DNA of 64,000 nucleotides, taken from assembly GCA_051362555.1 (NCBI GenBank), contig CM120646.1, positions 12,524,001 through 12,588,000 on the forward strand. The letters run 5' to 3'. The stretch is from Lingula anatina. Lineage: Eukaryota; Animalia; Brachiopoda. The notes below the pieces were generated by a model, which saw only the letters and a list, made by a program, of their open reading frames with translations, ran no database searches and was not told the origin of the DNA. Below, piece by piece: positions 10,889 to 58,925 of this stretch. Made by a program: the position numbers and the translations under genes. Positions within the stretch are counted from its first letter, which is position 1. Each line of letters opens with the position of its first letter.

Positions 10889-12385
10889 ATGGTCGGATCC
10901 ATAGTTGGCATCCTGGTGGCAGCATGTCTAACAGCTGCTGTAATTAAAGAAACAGAGGCGGTTTGCTGCAAAGCGGTTACAGGAGGTTTCTGCAAAGATT
11001 GCACTGTTGTAAGTTATCAGTTAATTTGCAATTCCGTGTTGATATGAATACATCAGCCATTGGTTTACTGAGCAACTCTGTTGTTTATGATCAAATGGAC
11101 ATGATTATTTTTGAATATTTACATATTAACTGTGCTTGGGAAATGAGACGGCAGCATGGTGAAATAGCAATAAATGGCAACCTTTTATAGTGGACTACCA
11201 CAGGGAGGATGGAACGCTGCCATAGTTTCCAAGCCCTCAATGCTATCTTTGTGGTCATCAGTGCTTTACATTTCGAGTGCTTTCACATCCCTGTTAAATT
11301 CACGCGTTTAGACTAATTTAGTGAATAAACATAATTTACAACCATTAAGTTGCTCTAACACAAAATATCACATCATAAATTATATTTTCTTTTCAGTAGC
11401 AGTACTCTAAAGCCATTCTGTTCCATGTCCCGGCTCCACACGCACACAGATTTATCATAATATGTAGCGTAGATCTAGCAATATGACATTTAAAAAAGGA
11501 TTGAAGAAATGGACCTAACGGTGAACAGATTTACTTAGTGCTGTTGTCATTCCAGGGGACCCCGTATTGCGGGTATCAGAGTTGCAATATTTTTGGCTGT
11601 GCTTGTGGCGGGGGATGTCGGAGAGACTGTGGTTACAGGTTAGGTGGTTACGGGTGAGTTTTATGAGAATTGGTCGATGGTATGAACACAATACCTAGTT
11701 ATTATAATTTTATTAATGCCGTGAACTATAAATGCTTAGTACATGCAGAGCACACCCTTTTTGAAGAATTACTGCAGAATAAAAAAATATCTAAAAACCC
11801 TTCACCTTTTTTTCGCTTAGAAATCATTACCTCAATATACTTGTATATGGCAATGTTCTATCTTTGATATCTAAAACTTTTACAAAAGGACAACCATTAT
11901 GGTTTTTGAGAGAAACCGACCGTCTACATGCACATGCACCAACAAGCGATCAGTGACAGATGAAGCAAGTGACACTGAGAGAGACAGGTACTAGTATACG
12001 GGGGTAGAAGGGGGGTAGAACTTGTTCCCTTAATATTAAAAAACATATACACATGTAAATCTCTTAAACTGTTTACTGTGCATTGGGCGCTTTTTGTGTA
12101 TTTTAATCTCATTGTGTAACCATAAGGCACAGATCGTATGTTGGAGAAATATATTTTCTTTTTATGTTTCTCAGTTCTAGAATATTTACTTTTCTCAATC
12201 CAAGACGTTTTTCTAAACATAATACATACATGTATCAAACATGTTTGCACAATTAAACTTGAAAAATATTCCAACAGTATTTCCCTTCAAAACAATTTTG
12301 TCTCAGAGATGATCACATTTTCAGGGATGCTTTGGTCGAAAAAAGAAGCATGGACGCAGATTCCATCGCCATGGCCGGAAACTAA
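10889..12385 (+). CDS. Mytimycin-like 12-Cys secreted peptide precursor, copy 1 (125 aa)
   Basis: Exons 10889-11008, 11556-11653, 11889-11987, 12325-12385. Signal MVGSIVGILVAACLTAAVIKETEA; mature VCCKAVTGGFCKDCTVGTPYCGYQSCNIFGCACGGGCRRDCGYRLGGYGTTIMVFERNRPSTCTCTN; then KR-SVTDEASDTERDRDALVEKRSMDADSIAMAGN*. Confidence 0.9.
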
Positions 12386-13199
12386 GATGATTCGGGAAAT
12401 TTTGGCCTCTTTCTTTAGAAATCGAGCTTCAGTGGAGGCATATTCACGTTAGCTTTGATTGTACCGCGTTATATGATATTCAATTTTTCATTTGATATAA
12501 TAATATTAGATATTATTATATCTACTAGCCAGAACAAACGCTGCAATTTGTTTTCTTACAGAGTGATATACACCGTGTTACAATACAAATGTAGACGTAA
12601 AATGGAAAGTCGTGGATTTTCGTTCTATACACATATATGCTTAAAAAAGGAACACAATCGAGAGCATTCAAATTTATCTTTTGAGACTTCAGCTTGTGTA
12701 AAGCTCCTCTATATTGGTTTTTGGTGTTATTTAGCTTTTATTCTTAATCTCATGTCCGGTTCGTTCACATGGTGTAAGTTTATTTATCTGTGCAATAAAA
12801 AAAACTATTTGGAACTTAAATGGGACGTTTTCAGAATTTGAAAAAAGGCTAACCAGTCTGGGTGTAACTCTATGCAACTGTGCGCACCGTTCCCTGTGAA
12901 AGAATAAGCTGTCTGGCAATGTCTGTCTTTTTGGCCTCATTCTAGCACAGATGAACAATTTTATAAAACGCTGTTTGACTCATTTTACGCACTACAAAAC
13001 TGACCGAAGGCAAGCTAAAATCCAAATTCTTCTATGCAGTAGTAACCGATATATGGATACTTTTTGTAACAGTACCATGCTTCGCCAAAGCCAAGCTCTG
13101 GCCAGCCCAATGAAGCACTTTCCAAAGAAGTCACGAAGGGCAGAGAATAAAAGTTGCATTCACAAGTCGCGTTTCTGTTTTTTTTATTTTTTCCCTTGT

Positions 13200-13740
13200 A
13201 ATAATAATAATAATAATAATAATAATTTATTAAGCCAATAAAATACAAATGTATAAAATCGGGAATCTTTTGCCCTGTAGCACGCGCCATTGAAATATAA
13301 AGAATGAAAATTAAAATTACATGATAGAGTTGAAAATAGTTACTGCCGAAGGATAAAAGCTATTTAAAAATCGCTAAGCCTGAATTGCTAGGTAAAAATT
13401 TAAAAAGGGTATGGGCTGGATGGGAACTGTCTGTCATTATTGATAATGTTTTCTTTTTAGTCCTGTCTGGATATATAGTATGGACGGGAGTTAGATCTGT
13501 TCCAATTACAATCCCTGCAGTTTCGACGATCTTTTCCAACTTGTTCCTCTCCTCCACAGTTGCACGTCCATACCAAACAGTTACTGAATAAGTTAAAATA
13601 CTCTCTAAAACACACCTGTAAAAGTTCGTTAAAATAAACACATTTCTATTAAAAGCTTTCAATTTCCTTAAGAAATACATTCGTTGACGTGCCTTTTTCA
13701 ATAGCTTCGTGATGTTATCGCCCCAGGTTAACCTATTATT
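13200..13740 (-). mobile_element. 5'-truncated LINE (L2/Rex-Babar-like RT C-terminus) with (ATT)n tail
   Basis: ORF reads LTWGDNITKLLKKARQRMYFLRKLKAF..FYRCVLESILTYSVTVWYG..DSSHPAHTLFKFLPS. Flanked by CTTGT on both sides; the paralogous site at about 39160 is empty. Confidence 0.85.
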
Positions 13741-56043: not shown

Positions 56044-57361
56044 TATATACTCTACATATATTTAGCCATCAAACATGTCCTACTGCTAAACACATCCAGG
56101 CTAAAAGGGTGTACCATGCTTAGGTGCAAAACATGCTTACACGGTAGGAGCTAAATGTGTTGAAAAAAATCAGACAAAGCAGGCACTTGGATGTTTTTAC
56201 AGTGTACGTTGTAATTGTGTACTTGTGTTTTGTACCAAAAATAAAAACATTTCAGGTCATAATGTCTTTTCATGCAAGAATGTTGTCTAACAACTAAGGT
56301 TGATACAATGTTGTTATCTGACGTTGATCCAACTTTCAAATCCAACGTTTATCCAACATCTTATCAACGTTATGGTTCAACGTTGGGTTATTGACCAGTG
56401 TTTTATTGTAGCTCATCACGGCCACGGAACAAAACGAAGCATATATCAACAGGCATTTCATTTATTTATGTTGTTTTAGGACCTTTCCGTTCTTTTCCCG
56501 TTCTTTCTTTCAAAAACCCAGATCTCATATAAAGAATGTGAATGTATAGTCCGATGTGTCGCTACCAACTAACTGACTACCATAATATGCAGTGGTTGAA
56601 TTGGGTAGTGCTGCTTTGGGCTTGTCGAAGCTTGGCTATGGCGAAACATAGTTCTGGTTTCAACTACTACATAGAACCCTTTGCAATTTTGATTGTTAGT
56701 GGTCGGTTTTGCAGTTTGTAAAATGAGCTAAGCAGCATTTTACAAAATTGTTAATTTGTGGTAGAATGGCGCGAAAAAGACAGACATTGCCAGACAGATA
56801 AAGATTTTTGTGTCACACGGAACGGTACGTACTGTATGTCTTTATATATCAAATCCTTATTACGCAAATGAATAGTCTTCTATGAATGAGTAGTAAACAA
56901 GTAAGAGCAAAAGGAAACCAAATAAGAATGCAGCTGAATATTATTATTCTACGCAATCAGAAGTAATTGAATACGCATTTATAAATGACTTTTTGTTTCT
57001 TTAAAATAAATTTTAAGACCGAGGTCAAATTCCCCAAGATCAACTTTGTCTTCAACTGTGGTGATGAAATCGTGTCAATGCTTCTTTTTTCGGACAAAAC
57101 GTCCCTGGAAATTTGATCACCTTTGAGGCAGAATTGTCAAGTCAATGAACATATATTATCCAACACATTTAATCATTTGGAGCAAAGTGTGGCGTTTACA
57201 GTGCCCATATTTATGGTACAGTATTCCATTAAAATCAGATTAAAAAGCATTACCACAGGACGCACACTAAAAACGTTAATAGTACAATGAACGTATAGTC
57301 TATATTTAAAATATATTTGGGTTAACCCTTTCCTTGCATACCTGCCTCTATCAGTGCCATT

Positions 57362-58925
57362 TTATACACTCACTGCATCAGTACCATCACCAGCTTCATC
57401 TGTCACTGATCGTTTGTTTGAACATTCACATCTAGTAGGGACATAACCTAGTCCAAATTTCATTCTGAAAATAAATATAATTTATATTTTCCCTCCATTT
57501 TTGCTGAAACTTAAAATTATATCTTAAACTTGTAAATGATTTACCATACATAAGTATCATTCATATGATGATATTTAACTTAATGTATTTTGAATCCGTA
57601 AATTCAAGACACGTTAAATGCTTGAATGCCAGACAATATTTCTTTCTAATAGACGTACTTTTTATCCCTGTGTATGCCACCGCAGTCTTTTCGACATCCT
57701 CCATCACAAGAACAGCCGAAAATATTGCAACTCCCATATCCGCAAAACGGAGTCCCCTGAAATAATGTTGATAGTTCTATTCACCGTTAAGATGTAACTA
57801 CATGTATGTTTGGGTTGTATTCTCCCACCGGGAACGTTCCCTTATTTAAAATATACCTTTAATTTTACAAACCAGGTATTATTGCATTTCTATTGAGTAT
57901 GAAATTTAGTACATTAATTATGTACGTGCGGCAAGTGATCAATGAATAAAATAAACATAACTTATTTGTATGTTAGACGGAACACTTATTAATTGCTGCA
58001 GAAATACTGAAGTTACTGTTCACAACTGGAAAAAACACATTGGTATTCGCTATGTCCCATTTTTAATGAATATAAGAATAGAAGTTCTGGAAAAGTATTG
58101 ATGGTCATAAAAATAGTATCTGGTGCTGAGGAATGAATGGCACCCACGATGTTCATCGTGTCAGACCAAGGCCTAGTCGTTGTGGTAATCAACCTATAAG
58201 AGGCTATATCATTCTCATGTCAATAAAACAATAAATAATGTTATTTCTGCCATACAGCTACCTATGATGTATCGGCAATCACGGTCAAATCAGACATGGC
58301 AGTGAATATCCCTCATTTTAAGATGATCAATTTTTTTTTTTGCATTTCTGAAAATTAGGATGATGTCTGACAATGCCAACAAAGGTTCCCCTTTCTCATT
58401 AGTAGAGGAAAAACAGAAGTCACTAGTGGGCTTTATTCGGTCTTAAAGTGCAATTTTAGGTCACAGCAATAGTCTTAAAATCCTTTTAAGATACAAAATT
58501 ATCTAATATTTACGTAGGTGGTCAAGCAATGTTCTCCCCTAACAATGGAGAATACCTCCCCTCACGGAAGGAGAACATGTGTGGGGAGACGGTTGCATTT
58601 CAACTTAATTGCAAATCAACCCAGTTATGATCTTACTCATGGTTTAAGACCATGTAAGATTGTTTGTGATCTGAAATTGCACTTTAAGACCAATCAGGCG
58701 CACTAGTGTGTGAACTAGTACAATCACGCTAATTAACATGTACAAAAAATCGTATGTAATATCTTAAAAGAAAAAATAATAATTTCAACAGGCTTCATGA
58801 CTCCTTACCTTAGTGCAGTCTCCACAGAAACCAAAAGACATAAAGCAACAATCTGTTTCTGTTTCTTTAATGACAACAGCTGTTAGACACATTGCCAACA
58901 GTAAGCCAACTAGAGATCCGGTCAT
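57362..58925 (-). CDS. Divergent mytimycin-like 12-Cys peptide precursor, copy 7 (105 aa; stops in exon 3)
   Basis: Exons 58925-58809, 57756-57659, 57464-57362. MTGSLVGLLLAMCLTAVVIKETET-DCCFMSFGFCGDCTKGTPFCGYGSCNIFGCSCDGGCRKDCGGIHRDKKMKFGLGYVPTRCECSN-KR-SVTDEAGDGTDAVSV*. The homolog of exon 4 persists at about 57104-56980. Confidence 0.85.

Follow-up and report, generated by a model that had tools for sequence, protein, structure and literature searches.

Seven clustered Diedel-family genes for predicted secreted peptides of a mytimycin-like kind in the brachiopod Lingula anatina

A 64,000-nucleotide stretch of the Lingula anatina genome (assembly GCA_051362555.1, contig CM120646.1, positions 12,524,001 to 12,588,000 of the forward strand; hereafter the window, whose own numbering is used throughout) carries a real, conserved cluster of seven genes, g1 to g7, for cysteine-rich peptides that are predicted to be secreted. 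These genes probably encode pre-pro-peptides of a mytimycin branch of the Diedel family, which would act as secreted host-defence peptides with an antifungal or broader antimicrobial role. Such a role is argued from purifying selection on the peptide core, the fast-changing loop between the tenth and eleventh cysteines (C10-C11), the 12-cysteine array ending in CxC and the alignment of a Lingula paralog (P0059) with mytimycin. It is further argued from the mytimycin-like layout of charges, the antifungal activity of mytimycin, the match to the Diedel fold and an Asn-Ile-Phe (N-I-F) loop motif found in all seven genes.

A first-pass annotation, made from the letters of the window, had proposed seven paralogs with common intron phases of 0,2,2. 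A six-frame scan bears out the number, since exactly seven first exons that contain CC and as many second exons with CNIFGC lie at 10889-58925, and places two genes on the plus strand and five on the minus strand. Searching with Lingula relatives as queries (tblastn) found no eighth coding copy within the window. The phases hold in all seven models, each with four exons counted from the ATG, and GT-AG borders are present at 21 of 21 introns in the coordinate-built models. Alternative exon-3 acceptors exist in g1, g2, g4, g5 and g7, and the position homologous among the paralogs was taken; in g4, the alternative at 31029 would lengthen the C10-C11 loop to 25 residues. Two open reading frames of at least 100 amino acids (aa) overlap a first exon in frame, and both read through into intron 1.

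On the plus strand, g1 (10889-12385; exons 10889-11008, 11556-11653, 11889-11987 and 12325-12385) encodes a precursor of 125 aa with a C10-C11 loop of 21 residues, and g2 (17813-19514; exons 17813-17932, 18494-18591, 18832-18954 and 19454-19514) one of 133 aa with a loop of 19. Their predicted non-coding first exons, on the same strand, end at 10407 and 17521, respectively. On the minus strand lie g3 (22193-25195; exons 25195-25076, 24485-24388, 22729-22607 and 22253-22193; 133 aa, loop 19), g4 (30534-32040; exons 32040-31924, 31345-31248, 31017-30919 and 30594-30534; 124 aa, loop 21), g5 (40645-42769; exons 42769-42650, 42083-41986, 41120-41022 and 40705-40645; 125 aa, loop 21) and g6 (47267-48847; exons 48847-48728, 48120-48023, 47790-47668 and 47327-47267; 133 aa, loop 19). 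Precursors of g1 to g6 thus measure 124-133 aa. The remaining minus-strand gene, g7 (57104-58925; exons 58925-58809, 57756-57659, 57464-57342 and a fourth from 57104), is the most divergent copy, its exon 2 DNA being 71-75% identical to that of g1 to g6. An in-frame TAA at 57364-57362, inside the tail and 20 nt ahead of the end of exon 3, limits its precursor to 105 aa, and the fourth exon of g7 is therefore non-coding. Intron 2 is swollen by insertions in g3 (1658 nt; 22900-24300) and g5 (865 nt; 41200-41800), and in both genes it also contains a long TA-type repeat.

The cysteine spacing of 0-6/7-2-6-4-4-1-3-3-19/21-1 described in the first reading was confirmed in all seven peptides. The six-cysteine spacing of exon 2 occurs seven times in the window, compared with no occurrence in 50 mononucleotide shuffles. 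All mature domains had been called intact, and 12 of 12 cysteines are indeed kept in each peptide, including g7 despite its tail stop. Each precursor starts with a 24-residue hydrophobic leader (hydrophobicity 2.6-3.0), assigned as a signal peptide from hydrophobicity and alignment to relatives, which agrees with the secretion predicted earlier. From the leader to the basic site, the peptides measure 64-67 aa with a net charge of +2 to +6 and a mature isoelectric point of 8.0-8.8, against 8.3 in mytimycin. The tail, previously described as acidic, has a net charge of -4 to -7. Past the twelfth cysteine, a KR site is present in five of the seven genes, replaced by ER in g2 and IR in g3 (a single R). 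No EF-loop pattern was found in any of the seven C-terminal tails; in a comparison for eroded EF-hands, three tails outscored all but 4 of 200 shuffles and the other four did not.

According to the proposed mechanism, the leader would send the precursor to the endoplasmic reticulum and six disulfides would form within it. A convertase would then cleave at the basic site past the twelfth cysteine, freeing the acidic tail, which may mask the cationic peptide in storage until its removal. The freed peptide would fold as the disulfide knot known as SD2 in Diedel, with the exposed N-I-F loop as a conserved binding surface. To this knot, the C10-C11 loop would add a beta-hairpin, and this paralog-variable hairpin may, together with the C2-C3 loop, tune the range of targets.

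Mytimycin is a haemocyte antifungal with an anionic extension after a dibasic site; mytimycins have been described as restricted to Mytilida, with their structure and disulfide pattern unsolved (PMC8004829, Rey-Campos et al. 2021). Growth of Neurospora and Fusarium is inhibited by mytimycin, said to be the sole mussel antimicrobial peptide (AMP) with a strictly antifungal action (PMC3210125), and a 2023 review entry gives it 'no homologs among known AMPs' (PMC10608444). The likeness claimed for the window peptides stands, as 18-20 of 31-32 residues of their C1-C8 core, 10-12 of them non-cysteine, are identical to Mytilus edulis mytimycin (AET85056.1, P0124). Between g7 and a Perna viridis mytimycin, 26 of 36 core residues are identical, counted by eye. 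Shared with type II mytimycin are the signal peptide, the CC start, the C1-C8 spacing, the 10-cysteine backbone with a C-terminal CxC (12 cysteines in all), a cationic mature peptide followed by a basic site and an anionic extension, a non-coding first exon and multigene variation (PMC8004829). The CxC-x3-C (xGGC) ending is likewise present in Modiolus, Perna and Perumytilus sequences (PMC8004829, File S4).

There are differences as well. A C-terminal extension as in mytimycin had been proposed; it is anionic and follows a basic site in the window peptides, but unlike in mytimycin it holds no EF-hand in any of the seven. One Perumytilus mytimycin also lacks an EF-hand (PMC8004829). The C9-C10 spacing is 3 in the window peptides versus 8 in P0124, and the C10-C11 spacing is 19-21 versus 6-9 in the type II and I rows of File S4, read by eye (PMC8004829). 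Three introns follow the ATG in the window genes, whereas mussel gene entries have three exons and two introns (PMC3210125). The host also differs, being a brachiopod here and Mytilida for the published mytimycins (PMC8004829). By profile the seven genes are placed in the Diedel family, as a variant of the mytimycin kind without an EF-hand and with a long, variable hairpin. They are not classed as mytimycin proper because their tails hold no EF-hand and their activity is a prediction.

When 1.84 billion proteins were searched with a profile built from all seven exon 2 sequences, 83 matched; together with the best 120 of 169 from a second search and cluster members, these make up 176 distinct listed relatives. 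Those that carry a name belong to Lingula, Mytilus edulis (the mytimycin precursor), Branchiostoma, mites, Drosophila, Chlorella and several fungi. With patterns composed after the sequences had been inspected, the mytimycin 10-cysteine backbone (CC-C-C-C-C-C-C-C-C with a conserved central block) is found in all seven window peptides and in 21 of the 176 listed relatives. The 12-cysteine form ending in CxC is found in all seven and in 14 of the 176, namely 13 Lingula entries, including one unnamed member of a Lingula cluster, and M. edulis mytimycin. The first-pass annotation had seen the C10-C11 loop as unusually long; it is long, but this is shared by the Lingula family as a whole, with at least 13 residues in 12 of the 13 Lingula entries. 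The EF-loop pattern occurs in 75 of the 176 listed relatives. In Branchiostoma and several basidiomycete fungi (P0055, P0117, P0123, P0133, P0134, P0137, P0058, P0118 and P0163), secreted Diedel-knot proteins with a mytimycin-like layout were observed, most with EF-hand tails, and the EF-hand fusion is therefore not special to mussels.

The closest kin found are other Lingula genes. RefSeq paralogs such as XP_013416209.1, XP_013407114.1, XP_013398944.1 and XP_013393532.1 share the 12-cysteine array, a long C10-C11 loop, a similar leader and the KR site; they reach at best 54-56% identity with the window peptides, and some keep one or two EF-hands. One of these, XP_013393532.1 (P0059), shows 34% identity to mytimycin in an end-to-end alignment of 158 columns that takes in the EF-hand tail. 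The subfamily had been thought probably undescribed. The searches brought up none of the seven window proteins themselves, the best relative being 54-56% identical, but other Lingula paralogs are present in RefSeq: three among the matches listed are labelled 'protein Diedel' or 'Diedel-like' by automatic annotation and others are uncharacterized. The occurrence of this kind of gene in a brachiopod shows that mytimycin-like genes also exist outside the mussels. An RGD is present in the Lingula 'protein Diedel' P0111, probably by chance; it lies in the acidic tail and not in the part predicted to form the mature peptide. In the literature searched, whose coverage left most subscription papers outside, no study of the Lingula RefSeq paralogs and no paper treating mytimycin and Diedel together was found; the available text of PMC8004829 does not mention Lingula, brachiopods or Diedel.

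The likeness to insect Diedel that had been noted was supported by several searches. Against the Pfam Diedel profile (PF13164, gathering score 21.3), three genes were scanned; exon 2 passes in g1 and g2, at 23.8 and 25.7 bits respectively, and has no match in g7, the matches spanning only profile positions 44-64 of 76. Diedel 3ZZO is the sole sequence match of exon 2 in the PDB, at an expect value (E) of 0.006. With exon 2 alone as the query, a weak search, no homologue was found at E up to 10 among proteins of at least 89 aa, and an ESM Atlas search gave no usable match. Common to the window peptides and Diedel (Drosophila CG11501; PF13164; 3ZZO, 3ZZR; baculovirus and ascovirus homologues) are the CC start, the C-x4-CNIFGCxCxGGC core, the predicted SD2 knot and the exposed N-I-F loop. 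Unlike Diedel, they have 12 rather than 10 cysteines and an added pro-peptide tail.

For the fold, the mature part of the Lingula paralog P0114, which is not a window gene and has the C10-C11 length of g1, g4 and g5, was modelled with AlphaFold (predicted local distance difference test, pLDDT, 82). The model has one beta-hairpin across the C10-C11 loop and no helix. Foldseek places the two Diedel crystals on top (probability 0.99, root-mean-square deviation (rmsd) 1.1 Å, 31-32 columns, E 0.12-0.15), with the next match at E 4.3. In VIA, Diedel is the sole chain with Z of at least 2 among 48,161 (Z 2.7, rmsd 2.8, 50 residues aligned). The top viral fold match is Xestia c-nigrum granulovirus ORF106; this virus is named by Coste et al. 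as carrying a Diedel-like protein (PMC3307722). A model of mytimycin itself was poor (pLDDT 60), and its top Foldseek matches were again Diedel (probability 0.60-0.63, E 0.44-0.50), which is only suggestive. In a PDB search with mytimycin alone, Diedel was the best non-EF-hand match at E 0.028; a search with the family alignment (A4) was dominated by EF-hand proteins. These modest scores, which partly reflect sequence identity, point to a shared knot and not to a shared function.

Next, sequence change was compared among g1 to g6. In the C3-C10 core, the proportion of non-synonymous differences (pN) is 0.024 and that of synonymous differences (pS) 0.150, giving a pN/pS of 0.16, and introns 1 and 3 diverge by 0.155 and 0.159; the knot core is thus under purifying selection. 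In the C2-C3 loop, pN is 0.257 and pS 0.147, based on few sites. For the C10-C11 loop, pN is 0.436 and pS 0.370, and pN exceeds pS in six of six ungapped same-length pairs, which share a common history and are not independent. Within such pairs, 8-13 of 19-21 residues differ in this loop versus 0-3 of 31 in the core. In six of six pairs, again not independent, the loop DNA has diverged at least as far as any intron window of its own length. Intron 2 is partly divergent too (0.07-0.43). Diversifying selection on the C10-C11 loop is therefore likely but not proven. Which paralog is nearest also changes along the gene: exon 2 of g5 most resembles that of g3, and its intron 1 and exons 3-4 most resemble those of g4, which suggests recombination among paralogs.

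In a signalling role, the peptides would not kill microbes but would be released as cytokines or matrix ligands and, through a host receptor, restrain immune or cell-death pathways. Such a role draws on the Pfam scores of g1 and g2 and on the near-invariant core of g1 to g6. It also draws on the N-I-F loop, described for Diedel by Coste et al. as an exposed patch and proposed as a protein-interaction site (PMC3307722). Fly Diedel, however, is a cytokine and integrin ligand that acts through, and needs, an RGD motif (PMC9116668), whereas no RGD or KGD is present in any of the seven window peptides. In addition, the ferredoxin-like SD1 subdomain of fly Diedel contains a helix (PMC3307722) and the paralog model has none. 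Fast loops and many copies would also be more in keeping with an arms race against pathogens than with binding to one host receptor, and we regard signalling as unlikely.

Reproductive proteins and toxins also combine conserved frames with fast loops, so that the pattern of change may also suit a secreted non-immune role: shell or cuticle matrix, gamete-surface protein, or anti-predator or anti-fouling peptide. Some Lingula paralogs keep EF-hand tails, Diedel-like proteins are found in caterpillar seta venom (PMC11335235) and a Diedel-like gene is the most expressed in Tricholoma fruiting bodies (PMC6980582). On the other hand, the nearest characterised architecture is that of mytimycin, a haemocyte antifungal, and the window peptides lack the EF-hand. 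Structural shell proteins would moreover be expected to be abundant, whereas the window transcripts are rare in RNA runs whose tissues are not stated. Such non-immune roles are, in our view, quite improbable.

For expression, eight of nine raw-read RNA runs under the same species label were used (6-30% of each run). Four were mapped to 10000-20000 (g1 and g2) at 90% likeness and four others to 47100-59700 (g6 and g7) at 85% likeness, at which reads could derive from a paralog; splice joints were counted from three reads upward. Mapping RNA reads to the predicted junctions had been proposed as a check, and it yielded a single 5' untranslated region (5'-UTR) junction and no coding junction. The joint at g6 (48850-49373; three reads with three starts, run X9) connects a non-coding first exon to the ATG exon, and the donor and acceptor predicted for this 522-nt minus-strand intron (48851-49372) lie within one base of it. 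In run X9, each of the six bins that contain g6 exons is covered at a depth of 0.12-0.66, run X7 has a trace depth across the two 5' exons of g2, and the bulk of the RNA depth in both regions falls on repeats rather than on these four genes. Low-level transcription and splicing of the family are thus seen in at least one sample. Support for the coding junctions comes from their conservation among paralogs. Under a host-defence role, the low RNA levels in ordinary runs would fit tissue-limited or infection-induced expression.

The very low depth could also mean that the array is a by-product of segmental duplication, mostly silent recent duplicates with one or two active copies. The tail stop of g7, the altered cleavage sites of g2 and g3 and a proximal first exon apparently mostly lost at g3 agree with this, and pseudogenes make up 18 of the 106 variants of mussel mytimycin (PMC8004829). 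Nevertheless, all seven genes keep the 12 cysteines, the open mature frames and GT-AG borders at 21 of 21 introns despite an intron difference of about 16%, and the core pN/pS is 0.16. Widespread silence is considered highly improbable.

Several points weigh against host defence by mytimycin-branch peptides. The antimicrobial activity of the window peptides is itself something we infer from their sequence, and a family relative, fly Diedel, acts as a cytokine and integrin ligand (PMC9116668). The family is widespread, occurring in fungi, a green alga, mites, amphioxus and Drosophila, and therefore membership alone does not settle function. In a ranking by the knot-only profile, M. edulis mytimycin comes 83rd of the 176 listed relatives. 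The tree that the first-pass annotation had called for, built on the knot (43 rows chosen from named and mytimycin-like matches, 38 columns), has 2 supported branches of 40 and was kept out of the orthology argument; the special tie to mytimycin is instead drawn from the cysteine architecture and precursor layout. The fold scores, obtained on a paralog model, are low in absolute terms (Foldseek E 0.12, template modelling (TM) score 0.41; VIA Z 2.7). The KR site is missing from g2 and g3. No coding splice junction reached three reads in the eight runs over the regions of g1, g2, g6 and g7, and the exon 2 and exon 3 bins of g1 and g2 have zero depth in four of four runs. Finally, NF-kB/STAT motifs are not enriched upstream of the five first exons checked.

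The genes g1 to g6 and their upstream DNA lie in a segmental duplication array in both orientations (7773-53000), whose units are mostly 70-90% identical by self-blastn. A non-coding exon is predicted upstream of the ATG exon, with the spliced joint observed at g6; at g3, this proximal type is apparently mostly lost. Copies of a second-type first exon and promoter are found at 8278-8396 (+), 15198-15381 (+), 27407-27587 (-), 37570-37753 (-), 51851-52015 (-) and 59413-59499 (-). For g1, g2, g3, g4 and g6, such a copy lies 2.2-5.5 kb upstream in the same orientation, with an intact GTAAGT donor in three of these; at g7 no other type is present, and its copy lies some 0.5 kb upstream. The copies are possibly alternative promoters. 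A tandem unit of 140-170 nt, repeated two to four times, lies upstream of most array genes (16574-17038, 33002-33693, 43432-43740 and 49692-50016).

Outside the peptide genes, exons of a TTLL4-like tubulin polyglutamylase are present at 590-3592 (-), with L. anatina XP_013386992.1 as the best match. Three clean exon matches have 62/65, 44/45 and 26/26 identities (95-100%); three further matches are at 60-84%, lowered by running into introns. By these matches, the window comes from L. anatina or a near relative. Extra exons at 591-797 and near 2-172 suggest that the 242-aa RefSeq model is cut short. Explanations of the cluster that were tried and rejected include a chance match, a venom toxin, as nothing found supports a venom role, and contamination with mussel DNA, since the neighbouring TTLL4-like gene is of the Lingula type and the family is also present in Lingula RefSeq. 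At 13363-13758 (-), a 132-codon frame that draws RNA reads matches PF09004 (E 9e-12), presumably the tail-marking domain of a non-LTR retrotransposon. RNA reads join 52713 and 56046 in all four runs mapped to 47100-59700; the ends are not GT-AG, and a repeat element present elsewhere without the intervening 3.3 kb is the likely source. Two tandem open frames at 62545-62832 and 63123-63380 (-), 85% identical in DNA and with a Pro-Arg-rich stretch, show a weak resemblance to Kazal domains (PF07648, E 0.004, below the cut-off) and may be a repeated exon from a gene for a secreted protease inhibitor.

A broader reading, tentative and to be taken as a whole, would unite mytimycin and Diedel in one ancient family. 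Its ancestor may have been a pre-pro-peptide of knot, basic site and EF-hand, as seen in fungi, amphioxus and other eukaryotes, from which a 12-cysteine lophotrochozoan antifungal form was derived and retained in mussels and brachiopods. In Lingula, the family would have expanded to some 20 genes and lost the EF-hands in the window branch. The C10-C11 loop, divided between two exons, would have become a fast-evolving hairpin, reshuffled among paralogs by recombination. If true, this reading would supply the fold of mytimycin and make its sixth disulfide ancestral and not convergent, the C-terminal disulfide of mytimycins being held to have arisen more than once (PMC8004829).

Known families are extended here, and no new mechanism is revealed. 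What is new with respect to the 2021 mytimycin paper is that both the restriction to mussels and the unknown fold are challenged. A brachiopod family with the mytimycin 12-cysteine array, some members of which have an EF-hand tail, contradicts the Mytilida-only range, and the match to the Diedel crystals offers a testable fold and disulfide map for mytimycin. The immune effectors of brachiopods are little studied. With a near-fixed knot and two differing loops, the seven paralogs form a ready series for locating the active surface, and, if the broader reading is correct, they would represent a natural scaffold library for antifungal specificity.

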